Assembly: GCA_963753745.1 (NCBI GenBank)
Contig: CAVWDX010000011.1
Location: 81,071 to 145,070 of the forward strand
DNA from: an uncultured Acidobacteriota bacterium
GTDB lineage: Bacteria > Acidobacteriota > Terriglobia > Acidiferrales > UBA7541
Direction of reading: 5' to 3'
Length of the DNA stretch: 64,000 nucleotides
Below the pieces are notes generated by a model. It made no database searches. It was given only the letters and a program-made list of their open reading frames with translations, and was not told the origin of the DNA. How positions within the stretch are numbered: position 1 is the first letter of the stretch; each line of letters begins with the position of its first letter. Positions 1 to 9,637 of the stretch are shown here, in pieces. The position numbers and the translations under genes were made by a program.

Positions 1-1542
1 GATCACTTCGATGTTGTTCGCCACACCCGCCTTGAAGCGGTCCCGCGCCTGATCCACTTCCTGCCTCGAAAGCTGCACTCCCAGATTCGCCACCTGCACC
101 TGGTTGCGCGCCGAGTCCAGATTGATGAGCGCCGTCTTCACGTCCAGCGCGATCTGATTTCGCAAATCATCTTCTTGCTGTTCCAGTTTTTGGATTCTCA
201 AGTCCGCTTGGACCACCTCCGCGTGGATCCGGCCGCCCGTGAACAGCGGCAAATTCACGCTCGCTTCATAGTTGTAGGTGGGTAGCGTGGTGTTTGACGA
301 CGTGCCCAAATATGCATAATTCCCGTCGAAGCGCACCGAAGGCAGCCTCGAGTACTGCGCCGCCTTCTTTTCTGATCCCGCTGCTTTCAGCTGGGCCTGC
401 AGCGACTTCCACTCTTCGCGCTGCGCCAGCGCCAGGTCGATGCTCCCTTCCACGTCCGGCTGCGGCGTATCGAAAAAGCTGAGCGAATCCGCCAATTCGA
501 TGGCTTGCCGCGGGTCCAGATTCAGCATTCGGCTCAGTCCAAATAGAGAAGTGTCCCGGTCGTCTTCCGCCTCGAGCAACCGCTGCTTCTCGTTCTGCAG
601 TTCCACGTTTGCTCGCAGCGTATCAATCCCTGTCCCAACCCCTTCTTTCTGTACGTCCGCCGCCTGGTCATAGAGCGCCTGCGCCAGTTCCACTCGCGAC
701 TCAGACGCTTGCACGTTCGCCACGGCCCGCAGTGTCCCGATGTATTGCGACACCACCAGCAAAATTACTTGCTCGCGCGTTGAAAGGCTGTCTGCCTGGC
801 TCGCGTTCACGGTTTCACGCGCCGCCTGATACTTCCGCCAAAGCTTCAGGTCGAAGATGGGCGCGCTCAGGCTCGGTCCCGCGGAGAAAATCTGGTACGG
901 GCCCAACGATTTCGGAAATCCGGGGAATGGCGTCCTCCCGCCAAACTGCGCCAGCAAGTTTACTTTCTGTGCCTGATCGCTGACTCTTGCATTCAATTGC
1001 GGCAGAAGGTCGGCCAGCGCCAGGTTTTTGTCCTGAGCGCTCACTGCCGCCGACAAAACCGCGATTTGCGCTGTCGGGTTCTGTTTCAGGGCCAAGCTTA
1101 CGGCCTGATTCAACGTCAGCCGCAACACTCCGGTCGGCGCAGTCCCTGACAAGGGCGTTTGCTTCCCGCTCCCCTGCGCGCGTGCAACCGCCGGCATCAC
1201 CATCAGGCTAAAGAACGCGACATAGAAAATGATGTGCGAACCCTTTTTGTGGCCCCCGCAGCCCAATTTCGCCGTCCGTTCGTGCCCTTCAATCTCATCT
1301 ACAATCGCCTGGTTCAGGCACCCTTCCGCGATCAGCCTTCCGCCTTGTTGGTGAATCTCTTTCAACAGTGTTTTGCCTGCCGCATCGATGAAGCTCACCC
1401 CGCACAAGTCCACGCTGTATTTCTGCCCCGGTGCCCGTTCGCGCCAACATTGGTCCAGTGCCGTAACCCAGGGCCCCGCCAGCCGGCCTTCGACGCTCAG
1501 AACTGTCTTTCCCCGTTTTGTTTCCGTTGTGATTCTTAACAT
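1..1542 (-). CDS. STAS-domain/TolC-family outer membrane efflux protein fusion (3' end beyond window edge)
   Basis: Hand translation from ATG 1542 is open to position 1: MLRITTETKRGKTVLSVEGRLAGPWVTALDQCW...VDLCGVSFIDAAGKTLL (STAS-like), then KKGSHIIFYVAFFSLMVMPAVARA|Q (signal-like), then LTLNQAVSLALKQNP...LLPQL...ASVNLPLFTGG...EVDQARDRFKAGVANNIEVI (TolC/OEP). Absent from the ORF track, presumably because no stop lies in the window. Confidence 0.85.
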   Translation of the reverse strand, partial: MLRITTETKRGKTVLSVEGRLAGPWVTALDQCWRERAPGQKYSVDLCGVSFIDAAGKTLLKEIHQQGGRLIAEGCLNQAIVDEIEGHERTAKLGCGGHKKGSHIIFYVAFFSLMVMPAVARAQGSGKQTPLSGTAPTGVLRLTLNQAVSLALKQNPTAQIAVLSAAVSAQDKNLALADLLPQLNARVSDQAQKVNLLAQFGGRTPFPGFPKSLGPYQIFSAGPSLSAPIFDLKLWRKYQAARETVNASQADSLSTREQVILLVVSQYIGTLRAVANVQASESRVELAQALYDQAADVQKEGVGTGIDTLRANVELQNEKQRLLEAEDDRDTSLFGLSRMLNLDPRQAIELADSLSFFDTPQPDVEGSIDLALAQREEWKSLQAQLKAAGSEKKAAQYSRLPSVRFDGNYAYLGTSSNTTLPTYNYEASVNLPLFTGGRIHAEVVQADLRIQKLEQQEDDLRNQIALDVKTALINLDSARNQVQVANLGVQLSRQEVDQARDRFKAGVANNIEVI

Positions 1543-2743: not shown

Positions 2744-4093
2744 ATGCGTTCCTTCGTTCGAACCAGTTTCCTCTCTCTAGCCGCGGCTTTATCTATCTCC
2801 GCCCCGCTCTTTGCCCAAAGCGATTTGGACCAGGGCATCAATAAAGAAGAAGACTCGCTCCTGGCAACCTACAAACATCTCCACGAACACCCGGAACTCT
2901 CCACCCAGGAAAAAGAAACTTCCGCGTTGATCGCCGCGGAATTAAAGAAAGCCGGCTACGAAGTCACCGATCATTTCGGCCAGTACGATGACCCCAAGTT
3001 AATTTCCTACGGCATCGTCGCCGTCCTGAAAAATGGGCCCGGCCCCGTCGTTTACGTGCGCACCGATATGGACGCGCTTCCCATCGTCGAAAACACCGGC
3101 CTGCCCTACGCCAGCCACGTAAAAGCAAAACGTGCGGACGGCACCGAAGTTGGCGTGATGCACGCTTGCGGCCACGATCTCCACATGACCGTTTTTCTCG
3201 GCACCGCGCGCATGCTCTCGCAACTAAAGGATCGCTGGAGCGGCACGGTGGTCTTGATCGGCCAGCCCGCGGAGGAAACCGTCGGCGGTGCGCAAGCCAT
3301 GCTCCGCGCAGGACTCTTCAAAACATTTCCCAAGCCGGATTACGTCCTCGCGCTCCACGACACCGCCGCGGTACCCGCTGGAAAAGTTTCCTGGCATGCG
3401 GGGCCTCTTCTCGCTGGCGCGGATTCCGTGGACATCACTGTGCGCGGCTATGGCGGGCACGGAGCCGCGCCGCAAGCGACAAGAGATCCGATTGTCATCG
3501 CCTCGGAAATCGTCGTCATGTTGCAAACGATTGTCAGCCGCGAAATGGATCCTCAGCTTCCTACTGTCGTCACCGTCGGCTCGTTCCATGCCGGCACGAA
3601 GAACAACATCATTCCAGACGAAGCTCGCTTGCAGCTCACCGTTCGAACCATGAATCCACAGCAACGCGAAAAAGTTCTCGCGGCCATCGCCCGAATCACG
3701 AACGGCGTCGCTGCCGCCGCCGGCGTTCCCGCCGAGCGCGCTCCCATCATCCAAGTCGAGGAGGACCACGTTCCCGCCACCATCAACGATCCAGAGCTTT
3801 CGCGGCGCGTCGGCGCCTCGCTCGAGCGCGCTCTCGGAAAAGACAATGTCCTTGCCGGCGAGCCCATCATGGCCAGCGAAGACTTCAGTCTTTTCGCTCT
3901 CGCGGATCCCAAGCCGCCTATCTGCATGTTCTGGCTTGGCGCCGCCGACCCGGTAAAACTAAAGGAAGCGATGGAAAAAGGCGCGCGGCTGCCCGGCCCA
4001 CACTCGAGCGAATTCGCTCCCGTGCCCGGCCCCGCCATTCGAACGGGCGTCAAAGCCATGACCTCCGCGGTGATGGATCTGCTCCAAAAATAA
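2744..4093 (+). CDS. M20D-family amidohydrolase, exported
   Basis: HEHPELS, RTDMDALP, MHACGHD, QPAEE, GGHGAAP, SEDFS motifs; signal peptide ending LFA|Q; TGcTAGAAT at 2711-2719 and GAGGTG SD upstream. Confidence 0.9.
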   Translation: MRSFVRTSFLSLAAALSISAPLFAQSDLDQGINKEEDSLLATYKHLHEHPELSTQEKETSALIAAELKKAGYEVTDHFGQYDDPKLISYGIVAVLKNGPGPVVYVRTDMDALPIVENTGLPYASHVKAKRADGTEVGVMHACGHDLHMTVFLGTARMLSQLKDRWSGTVVLIGQPAEETVGGAQAMLRAGLFKTFPKPDYVLALHDTAAVPAGKVSWHAGPLLAGADSVDITVRGYGGHGAAPQATRDPIVIASEIVVMLQTIVSREMDPQLPTVVTVGSFHAGTKNNIIPDEARLQLTVRTMNPQQREKVLAAIARITNGVAAAAGVPAERAPIIQVEEDHVPATINDPELSRRVGASLERALGKDNVLAGEPIMASEDFSLFALADPKPPICMFWLGAADPVKLKEAMEKGARLPGPHSSEFAPVPGPAIRTGVKAMTSAVMDLLQK

Positions 4094-4166
4094 ATCTTCG
4101 TGTTCCCGAGGAACAATTCCAGAAGCGCAACTGCTATCGCGCCCGCGTTGTGCGTCCGAAATATAT

Positions 4167-5174
4167 TTAAAGTGCAATCACTCCCGCGCGAATGAGGTAA
4201 AGCGAAGTTACTCCGACGACGAGCCAGAGAATGATGCCTTGCAAGAGCGGACGCCATCCGACTTCCTTCAGCGTGGCGCGCGAAATGCCCGTACCAATTA
4301 GAAACAGAGTGGCCGTGAGCCCGAGACGGCCGAACGCGAAGATGGCGTTCGAGAAATAAGTGATCGCAGGGATGTAGGTGTTGAGGATTGCGGCCAGGCA
4401 AAAAAACAAAATGAACCACGGAAGCCGAATGGTCGATGCGCTGCTGACCTGAGGTTCGCCGTCAATTTTAGATTTATTATGTTTGACTGCGGCTACGGCC
4501 AGCGCCAGGGGGGCGATCCACAGCGCGCGGGCTAACTTCACCGTGGTGCCGATGATTAGTGCTTCCTGGCCATACTTCGCGGCGGCGCCAACGACGGAAC
4601 TTGTGTCATGAATCGCGAGCGCGGCCCAGAGGCCAAACTGCGATTGCGAAAGATGGAGCAAGCCGCCAATCGGCGGGAAAAGAAGAAGCGCGACGGAATT
4701 TAAAATAAAAACCGTGCCGAGGGACACCGCCATCTCTTCGTCATCGGCGTGAAGAATCGGACCGATCGCCGCGATGGCGCTGCCGCCGCAAATGGCCGTG
4801 CCCGCGGTAATCAGAAACGAAGAATTTCCGCGAACCCGCAAGAGCCTGCCGAGCGCGAGCCCCATCAGAATGGCAAATGAGATTCCCATCGCGGTGTAAA
4901 CGAAGCCGCTGCGGCCCGCTTTCAGCACTTCGTGCAGATTCATTCCGAAGCCGAGCGCGACGACGCAAACCTGCAGAAGGATTCGCGCGGATGTCCGTGC
5001 GATCGAGGCATACGGATGCGTGAAGCTCAGTCCAAAAATAATTCCGATAGTGAGAGCCACGGGAGGAGAAATAAGCCCGGTGAAAGAGAGGACAAGAACG
5101 ATAAGGAAAATAATTTTCGAGAAAGTGATCATCGCGAGAAGAAAGAGTATGAGGGCAGCGACAAACGCAGGCAA
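4167..5174 (-). CDS. YeiH/UPF0324 family putative sulfate exporter membrane protein
   Basis: GTAICGGSAIAA, GLWAALAIHDTSSVVGAA, TTVKLARALWI motifs; many TM helices; start uncertain (TTG 5174 or a later ATG). Confidence 0.85.
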   Translation of the reverse strand: MPAFVAALILFLLAMITFSKIIFLIVLVLSFTGLISPPVALTIGIIFGLSFTHPYASIARTSARILLQVCVVALGFGMNLHEVLKAGRSGFVYTAMGISFAILMGLALGRLLRVRGNSSFLITAGTAICGGSAIAAIGPILHADDEEMAVSLGTVFILNSVALLLFPPIGGLLHLSQSQFGLWAALAIHDTSSVVGAAAKYGQEALIIGTTVKLARALWIAPLALAVAAVKHNKSKIDGEPQVSSASTIRLPWFILFFCLAAILNTYIPAITYFSNAIFAFGRLGLTATLFLIGTGISRATLKEVGWRPLLQGIILWLVVGVTSLYLIRAGVIAL

Positions 5175-5228
5175 CGTCGAAATTAAAAATGCCGCGAGAT
5201 ATTTTTATCAAGGATTGCGCGGCAACGA

Positions 5229-6170
5229 TCATTGTTGCTCTTTCGGCTGCGCGGGCGCGAGCGCCGCGGGAGTTTTAACCTGGGCGGATGAAGCCGGTTG
5301 CGCGGAAGGAGCAGGCTTCGCGGCAGGCGGGGGTTGTGCCGGCGCGGATGGCGAAGGAGCACCAGGCGCGGTTGGAGCCGCAGATGGCTGGTGCGGGACG
5401 GCAGACAGTTTTGCGATGATTTTTTCCGTCGCAGCTTTGCTGACGGCGCAAGCCGAATCCCAGATGCGGCATTGCGCCAGAGTATATTTGCAGCCGCAGG
5501 TGCAAGACTCGGCGTTGAAACGGTGCAGGGCGATTTTCTTTTGCTCGGGTGTGAGTTTCGAGAGGTTGACGCCCGGAAGTTCGGTGGCTCTGTCGGCATG
5601 TTTGAGAAAAACTTCGCCGGTGTCCTCGAACGTTTCCACTTTTGCCTGGATGGGAAGACCGAGCAGGGCGCGAATTTCAGTTTCGTAGAGCGCCGGATCC
5701 AAAAGTCCGACGTGCTTTTGAACGACGCGGCCTTCGGTGTCCAGGACGAAGGAAGTGGGCAGGGCAGGGATGCCGCCGTATGCCATGCGGATGGCGTCGG
5801 GAGCCATGGCGACGGGATAGTTGATGCCAGTTTCCGCGACGTACTTCTGAACCTCGGCGGCGTCATCGTCGTCGACATTGAGGCCGATGACCTGGAGGCG
5901 GTCTTTATATTGATCCTGCAGAACGATGAGATCGGGGACTTCGGCGCGGCACGGTCCACACCAGGTGGCCCAGAAATTCAGAAAGACAACTTTGCCGTGG
6001 AAGGCAGCGAGGGTGAGCGGCTTGCCATCGAGGGAGGTGAGTTGGAAGCTGGGCGCGGGATCGGGATTGCGGACAAAGCGGATGACAGGTTCGTTGTTTT
6101 GTTGCGCGGAAGCGAATACCGGCCAAAAGAGAAGAAGTAACGAGGCGAGGAAGCAGCGAGAATGAGTCAT
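5229..6170 (-). CDS. TlpA/ResA-like thiol-disulfide oxidoreductase with extra C-terminal Cys-rich domain and Pro/Ala tail
   Basis: NFWATWCGPCRAEVP redoxin motif; signal peptide; C-terminal CTCGCKYTLAQCRIWDSAC. Confidence 0.85.
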   Translation of the reverse strand: MTHSRCFLASLLLLFWPVFASAQQNNEPVIRFVRNPDPAPSFQLTSLDGKPLTLAAFHGKVVFLNFWATWCGPCRAEVPDLIVLQDQYKDRLQVIGLNVDDDDAAEVQKYVAETGINYPVAMAPDAIRMAYGGIPALPTSFVLDTEGRVVQKHVGLLDPALYETEIRALLGLPIQAKVETFEDTGEVFLKHADRATELPGVNLSKLTPEQKKIALHRFNAESCTCGCKYTLAQCRIWDSACAVSKAATEKIIAKLSAVPHQPSAAPTAPGAPSPSAPAQPPPAAKPAPSAQPASSAQVKTPAALAPAQPKEQQ

Positions 6171-6472
6171 GGCGTCCTTTATAGGAGAGCACATTGAGCG
6201 GCGAACGCCAAGTGGAGGGTGGGCGTGACTTTTGGTCTATGTTCCGTGTCCTGTATCCCGAGTTCTGGGCTGGCAAAACTTCAAGAGGACAGCCAGGAAT
6301 GGCTGTCGCTGGCCTTCCCCCCCTCTTCACCGAATGAGTTGCGTGGCCGGAAATGTCGTTTAGTACTCCTTCAGGCTCCAAAATGGATTCTTGGAAGCCG
6401 GGACGATCACAGGCCAACGTCGAATGCGAACACTATGCATGCTTTCGCCCACGAATCCTCTTCTTACCTTGG

Positions 6473-6748
6473 TTCGCTTGTGCCGGAGAAGGCGCGGCCC
6501 TTGAATGACGAACAGCAGTTGAGAGCCGCTCTGCAGGTCCGCACTCTTTCTGCTGTCCGATACATACGCTTCCTGTTTCGCAGGAATTTATTCGAAAGGA
6601 CTCGTAGCCCCCGAGAGCGCCTCTGATGAATCTTGCTGAATTTATAGAAGGTAACCGCGATAAACATTTGGCCGAGCTTCATGAATTTCTGCGAATCCCC
6701 AGCGTGAGCGCCAAGATCGAATAAAAACCGGACATCGAACGCGCTGCC
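6473..6748 (+). repeat. diverged direct repeat copy 1 (upstream region + first 41 codons of the M20 dipeptidase gene)
   Basis: Aligns with 9820-10096; the coding part 6626-6748 matches 9974-10096 at 108/123 nt by hand count. Confidence 0.9.
6626..6748 (+). pseudogene. truncated 5' fragment of the M20 dipeptidase gene
   Basis: [40 protein letters not shown] with TAA at 6722-6724, versus [41 protein letters not shown] in the intact gene. Confidence 0.85.
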
Positions 6749-7077
6749 CCTTCTTGCGCTTCTTTGCTTGCGGTGAGGATCCGTCTCACGAACAACCGGA
6801 CGCCCCTCTGCCCGACGGGATTGCTTCCAGAACCGAGCCTCTACTGATCAGGGGCGCCATCGCAGGCGAATAAGCGTCGGCAGCTCTCGAAATAGCCCGG
6901 CACGGCGCTCGCAGGGTCCGTGCTCCGGACTGTCCCGGCCGTCCCCCTCCGTGACAATCCACTCTTTGCATCGTCCATACAAAAGCACCCCGCGGAATCC
7001 CGCTGGCTAAGCTCGGAAGTTTGCTTTATTTGGGAACCCTGGGCGGCTGACCTACGTAACCATGGGAGAGGTGTTTG

Positions 7078-9637
7078 ATGCCAAGCCTGCCCGGCAGTCT
7101 TCGGTATGCGCTCCGGCAGTTCCGGCTGGCGCCGGTTTTTACTACTGCGGCGATCTTGACCCTGGCCTTGGGTATTGGCGGGACCACCGCCATTTTCAGC
7201 TTGATTCACGCCGTGATGCTCCGCTCCTTGCCCGTTTCAGATCCTGGCAGGCTCTACCGCGTCGGCGATGGCGATGACTGCTGCGTGGAAGGCGGTCCCC
7301 AGGACCAGTGGGGTATGTTTTCGTATTCCTTGTATGAGCGCCTGAAGACGGAAACACCGGAATTTGAGGAGGTGGCCGCTTTCCAAGCCGGACGCGGCCG
7401 CTTGAGCGTGCGCCGCCAGGGGGTCGAGTCAGCCGCCAGACCTCTGCGCTCGGAATATGTCAGCGGCAATTACTTCTCCACACTTGGAGTGCCAAGCCTT
7501 CGGCGGGCGGATGTTTACCCCGGAGGACGACACGCCATCTGCCCCACCGGTCGCGGTACTTAGCCATCGCGTCTGGCAGACAGCCTATGCGTCGGATCCT
7601 TCCGTGGTGGGTTCAACTCTCGTGGTCGAGGGCCATCCCTTCACCGTGATCGGTGTCGCTCCACCCGGATTTTTCGGCGAGACTCTCGAAAGCGATCCTC
7701 CGGACATTTGGCTCCCGCTCCAACAAGAGCCCATGATGCATGGCCAAGGCGGTTTGGTGAACCAGTCCATCTCTGCGTGGCTGCGCATGATTGGTCGCTT
7801 GCGCCCGGGAGCTTCTATTACAGGTATGGCTCCGCGCCTCACGGGCGTTCTGCGCCAATGGATGCAATACGATTCTGGATATCCCGCCAACTGGATGCCA
7901 GACGTTATCAAACTTCTCCCCAGACAAACGCTTAACGTCATACCCGCCGGTGCCGGCGTGGCCGTGATGAAGGAGGAATACGGCCGCAGCCTCCAAATTC
8001 TGCTCACTGTATGTGGGTTGGTGTTACTGATTGCCTGCGCCAATGTTGCGAACCTTTTGCTCGCGCGCGGTGTAGCGCGTCGCGGGCAGACGGCTGTGCG
8101 GCTGGCCCTGGGAGCGACCCCGCGCCAAATTGTTGCTCAAGCGCTCACAGAAAGCATTCTTCTGGCGATTGGCGGCGCCATCGCCGGGCTGCTGGTGGCT
8201 ACGGCGGCCGCGCGCCTGTTGTTGACGCTGGCCTTTCATAGCGCTCATTTCCTGCCGATTAGCGCCACGCCATCGCTCATCGTTCTGGCCTTTGCCTTCG
8301 TGCTGGCGCTCGTTACCGGAATCATTTTCGGGGCGGCTCCCGCCTGGCTCGCAACGCGCACCGACCCTGCCGAAGCATTGCGCGGCTCGGGCCGCGGTAC
8401 CCGCGACCGTTCTTCCTTTGCGCGTAAAGCGCTGCTCGTTGTGCAGGCTACCTTGTCCGTTGTTTTGGTCGCCGGGGCAACGATGTTGGGCCGGAGCTTG
8501 AATAAACTCGAGAATCAGGACTTCGGATATAAGGTGCAAGGTCGCGTCGAGGTCGATATCAACAGGCCTCCGGCGAGCTACACGCAGCCCAGGTTGCAGG
8601 CACTGTACCGTCAGCTCGAAGAGCAACTCGATCGTATCCCCGGCGTGCAAGGGTCCGGGATGGCCTTGTATAACCCGCTCACCGATAACTGGGGCGAATT
8701 GATCATGGTGGCCGGCCATCCTCAGGGCAAATTTGATGAAAATTCTGGCGCTTCCTGGGATCGCGTTAGCGCGAACTTTCTTCAGAACTGGGGCATGCAG
8801 ACTATTCGCGGACGCGCGTTCACGGCTGCCGACAACGAAACCACGGCTCCTGTGGCCATCGTGAACGAAGCATTCGTAAAGCGTTTTTTCAAGAGCGATG
8901 AAGACCCGCTGGCCCAGCACTTCGGCCTGGACATGCCTCAAAACGCAAGCACGTTCACCATCGTTGGCGTCGTGCGCGATGCCAAGTTTGCGGGTTGGGG
9001 CTTAAGTCGGCCGGCGCGTCCGATGTTCTACGTGCCCCTCGCTCAGACGGTTGATTACCACGACGAGATCATGACGAAACTCGAGCTGCGCTCGCACTTC
9101 ATCGGTGGAATCATGCTGGTAACGAATCTATCTCCCGGGGCACTCGAGCCGCTGCTTACCAGGACCCTCGCGGAGTTGGATCCCGACCTGACCATCAACA
9201 GCATCCGGACCATGCAGCAGCAAGTCGAGCTTTCCTTCGATGAAGAGCGCGCCGTCGCCAGCCTTGCCGGTTTGTTTGGGATTGTCGCTCTGGTGCTGGC
9301 TGCCGTCGGACTCTATGGCGTTACGGCCTACACCGTCGCGCAGAGAACCAACGAAATCGGAATCCGCATGGCGCTTGGTGCGGACCGCCCAAGCGTGATT
9401 CAACTCGTTCTGCGCGGCGCATTCAAACGCGTTCTCGTCGGCTTGATCCTCGGCTTGCCTCTGGCGGTTGGCGCCGGCCGGTTGATCTCCGCCCAGTTGT
9501 ATGGCGTATCCTCGTGGGATCCGCTTGCCCTTGGCGTGGCTGCGGGCGCTCTGGCAATTTGCTCGTTCTTCGCGGCGATCATTCCCGCAAATCGGGCAGC
9601 ATCCATTTCGCCCATGAAAGCGTTAAGAATTGAGTAG
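7078..9637 (+). pseudogene. ADOP-type duplicated ABC transporter permease (MacB/FtsX-like), frameshifted near 7492
   Basis: ORFs 7075-7563 and 7457-9637 join into one permease (LALGIGGTTAIFS...VSGNYFSTLGV / QAFGGRMF...LLIACANVANLLLAR...EIGIRMALGA) if one C is removed from GTGCCAAGCC; may be a sequencing error. Confidence 0.8.

Follow-up and report, generated by a model that had tools for sequence, protein, structure and literature searches.

A STAS domain encoded in frame ahead of the signal peptide of a TolC-family channel in an Acidobacteriota efflux operon

Architecture of the fused gene

We analyzed a 64,000-nucleotide (nt) stretch of DNA from an uncultured Acidobacteriota bacterium (contig CAVWDX010000011.1; G000:C11:81071-145070; hereafter, the window, to which coordinates refer unless another contig or locus is named) and focused on a gene at its left end in which a STAS domain precedes, in one frame, the signal peptide of a TolC-family outer-membrane factor (OMF). 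Minus-strand positions 1-1587 form a single open frame that exits the left window end. With the left flank of the contig added, the complete fused gene was recovered; it occupies G000:C11 80948-82612 and encodes a 554-amino acid (aa) product from ATG 1542, with 120 nt of the TolC coding part and the stop codon lying past the window end.

Within positions 1-1542, the translation from this ATG comprises 514 residues without a stop. It starts with an 84-aa STAS domain (residues 1-84, beginning MLRITTE, MLRITTETKRGK...CLNQAIVDEI; 1291-1542), delineated by a family profile, a predicted fold and the pattern of substitutions, which is followed by a 19-aa linker (residues 85-103, EGHERTAKLGCGGHKKGSH; 1234-1290), delimited by comparison of orthologues. 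The tail of the linker, HKKGSH, doubles as the positively charged n-region of a signal (…HKKGSH-IIFYVAFFSLMVMPAV-ARA, then Q), the h-region of which covers residues 104-119 (IIFYVAFFSLMVMPAV; 1186-1233) and the c-region, ARA, residues 120-122 (1177-1185). The signal peptidase I site, read by rule from this n/h/c pattern, is predicted at ARA/QGSGK, between positions 1177 and 1176, and the mature TolC-family OMF, a Pfam OEP protein, would start at Gln123 (residues 123-554; 1-1176 and beyond). An initial annotation, made from the sequence alone, had proposed a single STAS-linker-signal-TolC frame, and the stop-free translation together with the OEP domain bears this out.

The same annotation took ATG 1542 as the start codon, and we concur, given that the putative promoter element described below overlaps ATG 1587, the first codon of the longer open reading frame (ORF), and that stand-alone relatives of the STAS domain start at the same Met (MLRIT). 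Initiation at ATG 1587 was also rejected because the resulting extension is conserved only in the closest relatives.

The TolC part matches OEP at 1.6e-52 in two stretches that correspond to the two repeats of the family. CmeC and OprM align with it from residue 143-144 onward, at the first helix (…LTLNQAVSLALKQNP), and TolC chains align as well. The proportions of nonsynonymous and synonymous changes (pN/pS) are 0.275/0.718 in the TolC core, 0.314/0.713 in the signal, 0.537/0.638 in the linker and 0.164/0.763 in the STAS part. The linker, with a ratio of 0.84, is nearly free to change, and the values for the STAS part indicate a translated, constrained domain under purifying selection stronger than that on the TolC core.

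Identity of the N-terminal domain

Profile comparisons of the fused protein itself recover OEP confidently and, for the N-terminus, only sub-threshold STAS hits; it is the family profile that reaches STAS proteins of solved structure. In an exhaustive search, the N-terminal 118-aa piece retrieved 1,814 representative clusters at E ≤ 0.001. Most are stand-alone proteins, 90-130 aa in length, with alignments that begin at the second Met (MLRIT), and 35 family members chosen from these clusters were assembled into an alignment (A1). At a threshold of ≤0.01, 18 of the 35 match Pfam STAS and 17 match STAS_2. The NCBIfam model ant_ant_sig is matched by 20. The A1 profile matches TM1442 at 5.6e-6 and SpoIIAA at ~7e-4. 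An AlphaFold model built on A1 (predicted local distance difference test score 85.9) contains the SpoIIAA-like beta-alpha fold, and its top matches in a Foldseek search of the PDB are all STAS proteins, namely SpoIIAA, RsbV and other antagonists, with E~1e-5, probability 1.0 and template modeling (TM) scores of 0.6-0.7.

In the profile alignment, the second Ala of the motif FIDAAG lies opposite the phosphorylated Ser of SpoIIAA (FMDASG), as the initial annotation had noted, and this position is occupied by A, E, D or K in the wider family. The phosphorylatable Ser/Thr that precedes the conserved Gly in the DSSG motif is accordingly absent from the window STAS. The ~85-aa STAS-like domain of the initial annotation is thus upheld by the family profile and the predicted fold, and, judging from these, the N-terminal domain appears to be a divergent, non-phosphorylatable member of the STAS fold superfamily.

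Three cysteines stand out in this domain (1291-1542). Cys32 and Cys75 are invariant across 12 orthologues and Cys47 is present in 11 of them; the positions of Cys32 (…CW) and Cys75 (…GC) hold Cys in most of the wider family as well. These conserved residues could form a redox or metal site.

Distribution of the fusion

Residues 1-125 match 2,508 database proteins, and among the 120 matches listed, all carry PF02321 and are 330-568 aa long. In the precomputed Pfam annotation, the fused proteins listed show OEP alone: the STAS domain falls below the Pfam threshold in them, so that the architecture is invisible to domain-architecture catalogues based on such thresholds. Among 40 related genomes, the domain lies inside the open frame (up to 616 aa) in 23 of the 24 that belong to the same genus and in 0 of the 16 from other families of the order. 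A survey of the phylum returned a match at ≤1e-5 in 102 of 401 genomes; strong full-length matches include fused frames, which occur in families f1 (two genera), f33 and f84, along with stand-alone genes from many further families. Ten hits of intermediate size from the exhaustive search were inspected; eight contain OEP, and the layout STAS-signal-TolC can be read in the sequence of the remaining two. Of the large open frames from the survey of the phylum, which could be mistaken for new fusions, some were rejected as GC-rich, stop-free artefacts around ordinary small STAS genes, and others as a separate family that combines STAS with an unknown domain.

In a tree of the STAS domain, all fused members fall within an efflux-linked clade (support 98/96), apart from a clade that precedes genes for extracytoplasmic function (ECF) sigma factors. 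With the base of the efflux-linked clade unresolved in this tree, the fused forms may stem from one fusion event or from several. The TolC parts of the different fused families are only 39-55 % identical.

At all 12 orthologous loci compared, the frame is open from MLRITT via the signal into TolC. No indel has to be invoked, the frame being kept in thousands of independent sequences, and STAS and TolC are not always separate in homologues, as fused forms recur throughout the genus and in families f1, f33 and f84 of the Acidobacteriota. The fusion architecture is genuine and conserved, and we regard this as close to certain.

Linker and internal signal peptide

The linker varies in length between 17 and 24 aa among the 12 orthologues and contains a stop or frameshift in none of them. 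An in-frame ATG, GTG or TTG is found in the linker of only two; in the window, it is a TTG at 1266-1264, ahead of the n-region, which is not conserved, and several orthologue linkers are devoid of any Met, Val or Leu codon. With no stop after the STAS domain and no general site for a restart, TolC in the clade of the window must be made as a fusion.

The internal signal spans residues ~98-122, behind the 84-aa domain rather than at the N-terminus. Its n/h/c organization is as given in the initial annotation, and the site is conserved in the 12 orthologues: Ala at -1 and Gln at +1 are invariant, position -3 is small or aliphatic, and a Pro or Gly occurs ~4-6 residues before the cut site. Distant fused forms have linkers and signals of their own that are unrelated to those in the window, for example, …ARLR-FLWLPLAATAVAGTLAAA/EPP… and …RGGRFAYLLMGLLVFSGLAAQA/QPKP…, and Ala (-1) with Gln or Glu (+1) is kept in every fused form seen.

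Four orthologues (L004, L006, L007 and L010, from genomes G003, G013, G007 and G001, respectively) have frameshifts in the TolC part, beyond which a different frame takes up the homology; in each of them, the junction of STAS and signal is intact. These frameshifts may be assembly errors or mark pseudogenes. A further variant, P0143 (372 aa), lacks the last STAS helix, the linker and the entire signal peptide (…GGQLVAGGLPGKAPTEVLRLTL…) and would be either a deletion allele unable to export TolC or a mis-assembly.

Operon context and the stand-alone STAS family

Downstream (3') of the fused gene lie genes for an HlyD/EmrA-type adaptor, a 529-aa EmrB-type transporter of the major facilitator superfamily (MFS), an ECF sigma factor, a Zn-ribbon protein and a MacB-like permease; the MFS transporter was recognized by sequence and the other neighbors by Pfam. 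The order of fused gene, EmrA-type adaptor and EmrB-type MFS transporter is found at 9 of 9 fused loci (the window and eight others, from three families), in agreement with the initial annotation, which had tentatively placed the remaining pump genes to the left of the window. Pfam scans of ~9 kb downstream and 4 kb upstream detected neither an anti-sigma kinase (HATPase_c) nor a PP2C phosphatase, and no ABC ATPase is encoded in this operon, the pump being MFS-driven.

Stand-alone members of the STAS family occupy comparable positions. At least 11 stand-alone loci have an OEP or adaptor (MFP) gene directly following: an OEP gene in L027, L041, L016 and L022, and an adaptor gene in L031, L036, L042, L043, L046, L049, L054 and L017, the last of which is an adaptor-RND-OEP operon, with an inner-membrane pump of the resistance-nodulation-division (RND) type. 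Rarer genes in this place encode a Crp-type regulator, a cyclic nucleotide monophosphate-binding (cNMP)/DUF1003 protein, hemerythrin or an ECF sigma factor. Among the four split STAS-TolC pairs, three have a stop codon of the first gene that overlaps the start codon of the second, as ATGA (L016 and L027) or ATGTTGA (L022), and such pairs are one indel short of a fusion. Three of the four separate OMFs are lipoproteins, and all the fused ones have sites of the signal peptidase I type. In the A1 alignment, no membrane anchor was found in the stand-alone STAS members.

The genome analyzed here contains two such stand-alone paralogues. At L016 (G000:C17:268000-279161; 4030-7659), genes for a GAF-domain sigma-54 activator, a stand-alone STAS protein, a lipoprotein OMF, an adaptor and an RND pump make up the second STAS-led efflux locus of the genome; the activator is split into overlapping ORFs (4030-5265/4862-5653), as is the OMF (6183-6848/6781-7659), which reflects either a decaying locus or an assembly frameshift. 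The third STAS paralogue, at 6195-6497 of L015 (G000:C13:35000-48000; locus at 5477-8713, minus strand), is flanked by genes for a PAS-PAS sigma-54 activator and for a Crp/cNMP-binding regulator and has no pump in its vicinity. At L029, in turn, the next long ORF, ~230 nt downstream of the stand-alone STAS gene, encodes a cNMP-binding and DUF1003 protein. The contexts of L015 and L029 imply that the STAS family is not confined to efflux operons.

Sigma-54-type promoter and activator linkage

A sigma-54-type -24/-12 element, TGGAGCCCGTAGTGCA (GG-N10-GC), was identified by motif on the minus strand at 1571-1586 (read 1586-1571), with 29 nt between its GC and ATG 1542, and overlaps ATG 1587-1585. 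In 38 of 45 loci, a GG-N10-GC element is located 12-40 nt ahead of the STAS start codon, and the spacing is exactly 29 nt in 9 of the 12 orthologues. Elements scoring ≥12 were found in 32 of the 45 upstream regions compared to 15 of 180 control segments. By motif match only, the fused gene thus appears to head its operon behind a promoter of the sigma-54 type.

Outside the genus, a gene for a bacterial enhancer-binding protein (bEBP; the sigma-54 activator) is present ≤1.5 kb upstream in 19 of 29 loci, co-directional in 16, and an activator gene is also found upstream in five of the eight wider fused loci. The genome of the window yielded 23 activator matches. The best is the activator ortholog considered below; the next two (64 % and 48-57 %) adjoin the two stand-alone STAS paralogues, and the rest are at ≤47 %. 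The three closest bEBPs thus correspond to the three STAS genes of the genome, and a dedicated activator subfamily accordingly travels with the STAS family. On this genomic evidence, the family seems to consist of small, non-phosphorylatable proteins of Acidobacteriota that are encoded by the first gene after sigma-54 promoters, mostly in tripartite efflux operons and usually beside an activator gene.

Proposed function and its alternatives

The most economical reading of these observations, we infer, is that cleavage of the product yields STAS in the cytoplasm and TolC for export at 1:1. The gene would encode a bifunctional precursor heading a sigma-54-dependent TolC-EmrA-EmrB efflux operon. 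The STAS domain would fold first, in the cytoplasm, and the internal hydrophobic segment would then serve as a signal-anchor, with the N-terminus inside and the positive n-region cytoplasmic, to take TolC through the Sec translocon. Cleavage after ARA by signal peptidase I would yield one mature TolC, destined for the outer membrane, and one STAS, left on the cytoplasmic face, where it would be held by the spent signal peptide until, possibly, an RseP-type site-2 protease releases it from the membrane. The STAS domain could then act as a regulator that reports expression or export to the sigma-54 activator or promoter complex, and the fusion would be an extreme form of the translational coupling by ATGA overlap in split STAS-TolC pairs.

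As a blend of architecture, cleavage and regulatory role, we give this overall reading a probability of about 0.6. Cleavage after ARA is very probable, considering the conserved site, and a membrane-tethered fate of the STAS domain would presumably follow. Of the division into a tethered STAS and a channel at 1:1 that the initial annotation had envisaged, the fusion, the conserved site and the lack of a general internal start now stand, with the cleavage itself still a prediction.

The regulatory role, feedback on the activator or promoter complex, is a tentative proposal to which we give somewhat less than even odds. It is preferred over a role as a pump subunit because the constant partners of the STAS family are the sigma-54 promoter and the activator, and the cargo changes among RND, MFS and non-pump genes. 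Furthermore, no STAS-adaptor fusions were found despite the frequent adjacency of the two genes, which suggests that the STAS domain must be physically separated from its neighbor; only a cleavable signal of the signal peptidase I type would guarantee such separation from a fused neighbor. The orthologous activator, encoded at a distance, may control the fused operon. The genome encodes an RseP-type protease (453 aa, 220 bits), and the RseP of Escherichia coli cleaves liberated signal peptides. A fuller scheme of export-coupled signaling, in which each TolC export leaves one STAS that is freed by the RseP-type protease, binds the sigma-54 activator or the ECF sigma module and tunes pump expression, is speculative and, on balance, improbable.

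Several observations weigh against this reading. Compared to Pfam on its own, the N-terminal 118-aa piece reaches E=0.023 with STAS_2 and E=0.092 with STAS, both under the gathering scores. The -24/-12 match in the window (TGGAGC...GTGCA) is moderate, and the activator gene is not adjacent to the fused gene in this genome and its genus, the ortholog (G000:C11:38745-40457; 73 % identity over the full length) being encoded 42 kb off on the same contig. No match to S49, the family of SppA, was found in the 93 %-complete genome, and release of the STAS domain is speculative. A Rosetta-stone search for further fusion partners returned only TolC, with no STAS-adaptor (MFP) fusion, and thus did not reveal the partner of the STAS domain. 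Finally, the target could be sought elsewhere: the ECF sigma gene begins ~95 nt after the MFS transporter gene (L002 14149-14802, minus strand) in the genus of the window only (L056-L058), and members of a sister STAS clade are encoded immediately ahead of ECF sigma genes (L052 and L055), which provides a lead toward the sigma or anti-sigma of an ECF module as the target.

The fusion could also be a tolerated accident, whereby the stop between overlapping genes was lost and the joined product, without a function of its own, persists as signal peptidase separates the two parts, leaving the STAS domain to act like the stand-alone forms. The ATGA and ATGTTGA overlaps put split pairs one indel away from this outcome, the evolution of the linker is almost neutral, and the sole partner is a TolC with a signal peptidase I signal, adaptors being absent from the fusions even though they are common neighbors. 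Yet, the fusion is kept genus-wide and in families with TolC parts as divergent as noted above and is, at the least, stably maintained. Such an accident would involve the same mechanism as the split into STAS and TolC that we favor and differs only on whether there is selection for 1:1 tethered delivery; we consider it unlikely, albeit worth keeping in view.

The initial annotation had further raised an MlaB-like accessory or a regulator of the pump. As an accessory, the tethered STAS would bind the loops of EmrB or the N-terminal tail of EmrA and stabilize or gate the pump at 1:1 with the channel. This idea draws on the encoding of most of the family with tripartite pumps, translationally coupled or fused to a pump gene, on hits to the NCBIfam model mlaB_1, weak in themselves, in 6 of the 35 A1 members, and on MlaB chains among the Foldseek matches of the STAS model at ~2e-4. 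However, the family precedes unrelated inner-membrane motors (MFS and RND) as well as genes for a Crp-type regulator, a cNMP/DUF1003 protein and hemerythrin, and its position is fixed to the promoter, not to any single pump component. The operon in the window, moreover, has no ABC ATPase, and the stand-alone members have no membrane anchor. A pump-subunit role is therefore less likely than a regulatory one and appears doubtful: the accessory part of the earlier suggestion finds no support, and the regulator part is favored by the pattern of sigma-54 promoters and activators.

Retention of the hydrophobic segment as a permanent transmembrane helix, such that an uncleaved STAS-TM-TolC protein stays in the inner membrane, seems very unlikely. 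The stretch, with 16 residues plus ARA, is rather long for a Sec signal, but the -3/-1 pattern, the invariant Ala (-1) and the Gln or Glu (+1) across distant forms, along with the helix breaker in the 12 orthologues, point to a cleaved signal. From the cut site, the first TolC helix is reached after ~20 residues in the window protein and after 3-4 in the f33 forms. A tail this short could by no means bridge the inner and outer membranes in an uncleaved protein, which favors cleavage; in the TolC structure 1EK9, the N-terminus is reportedly located halfway up the periplasmic barrel, with >100 Å separating it from the inner membrane. The TolC part is also a complete two-repeat OEP protein under purifying selection. 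Least probable of all and largely refuted is an artefact or a pair of products, with a sequencing indel joining two genes or TolC made from the internal TTG at 1266-1264, because, even though this TTG precedes the n-region in the window and four related assemblies carry frameshifts (within the TolC part), the frame is open in 12/12 orthologous loci and thousands of independently assembled sequences, translation of the STAS part must run into TolC in the absence of a stop codon between them, and the TTG is missing from 10/12 orthologues.

Relation to known systems

Of known proteins, SpoIIAA, RsbV and TM1442 (PF01740/PF13466) match the window STAS best by profile and structure; they share its fold and size and are cytoplasmic proteins that act by protein-protein binding. 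Unlike these antagonists, the window STAS lacks the phosphorylatable Ser/Thr, its operon has neither the anti-sigma kinase nor the PP2C phosphatase, it precedes a signal peptide, and it is tied to sigma-54 rather than to partner switching of sigma-F or sigma-B.

Among STAS-only proteins, the closest functional analogue is SypA, a small protein encoded in an envelope/export locus. In the syp locus, sypA is the first gene, and SypG is a sigma-54-dependent activator. SypA of Vibrio fischeri is a STAS-only protein of this locus with a still unknown target (PMC4517449, PMC8256260). It differs from the window STAS in being phosphorylated on Ser56 by SypE, unfused and encoded in a polysaccharide locus, and the two were compared at the level of the fold. 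MlaB, the STAS subunit of the MlaFEDB ABC transporter that binds the ABC ATPase MlaF (PMC7367683), is likewise a non-phosphorylated STAS protein serving envelope transport, with profile and fold matches to the window family that are weak. The pump in the window, in contrast, is MFS-driven without an ATPase, and its STAS family also heads RND and non-pump operons.

The closest mechanistic precedent is provided by the anti-sigma factors RsiV and RsiP, where site-1 cleavage falls to signal peptidase and a site-2 protease acts next (PMC4183432, PMC8844934). These proteins also combine a cytoplasmic regulatory domain, one membrane segment with a signal peptidase site and an extracytoplasmic domain. 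The RsiV/RsiP cut is ligand-gated and the regulatory domain is an anti-sigma domain, whereas constitutive cleavage is envisaged here, with a structural channel as the exported part and a second cut that is only hypothetical. Compared to ordinary EmrAB-TolC precursors (PF02321), the fused protein shares the two OEP repeats, a signal of the signal peptidase I type and an encoding in one operon alongside an EmrA-type adaptor and a 14-TM MFS transporter, but the ordinary precursors carry the signal at the very N-terminus, and here ~100 residues of folded cytoplasmic protein come before it. The layout is also reminiscent of viral polyproteins that have a cytosolic protein ahead of an internal signal sequence cleaved by signal peptidase.

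In full-text searches of the literature, we found nothing that ties STAS domains to TolC or efflux in this sense, or to sigma-54 activators, and a 2021 review of STAS-only proteins mentions neither efflux, signal peptides, sigma-54 nor the outer membrane. The STAS-signal-TolC arrangement is thus apparently undescribed. Outer-membrane proteins are expected to start with a signal peptide; here, a folded cytoplasmic domain is encoded first and kept under selection in thousands of sequences, as if in a natural bacterial 'polyprotein' that signal peptidase would divide between two compartments, with the regulator-like domain in the cytoplasm inherently coupled 1:1 to the channel that is exported. 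Through the fusion, an entire family of small STAS proteins also comes to light that is associated with sigma-54 activators and efflux operons and, in the fused proteins, escapes annotation by Pfam. Should the STAS domain feed back on expression, it would represent a new mode of efflux-pump control and a sigma-54-linked branch of STAS biology. An export-coupled device, if real, would amount to constitutive, stoichiometric regulated intramembrane proteolysis with signal peptidase making the first cut, and the succession 'activator - sigma-54 promoter - leader STAS' would constitute a type of regulatory cassette not described before, serving envelope-export operons in Acidobacteriota.

Other genes around the operon

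The Zn-ribbon protein encoded further downstream is a 234-aa multi-Zn-ribbon protein (L002 13112-13816, minus strand). Upstream of the fused gene are a 187-aa ORF on the minus strand (2067-2630) and a 449-aa ORF on the plus strand (2744-4093), for which 'RidA-like' and 'M20 peptidase-like' served as provisional labels, both of them guesses. In the related genome G005 (L057), a sigma-54 activator gene is found just past the homologue of the 187-aa ORF, an arrangement suggesting that a rearrangement parted the activator and the operon in the genome analyzed here.

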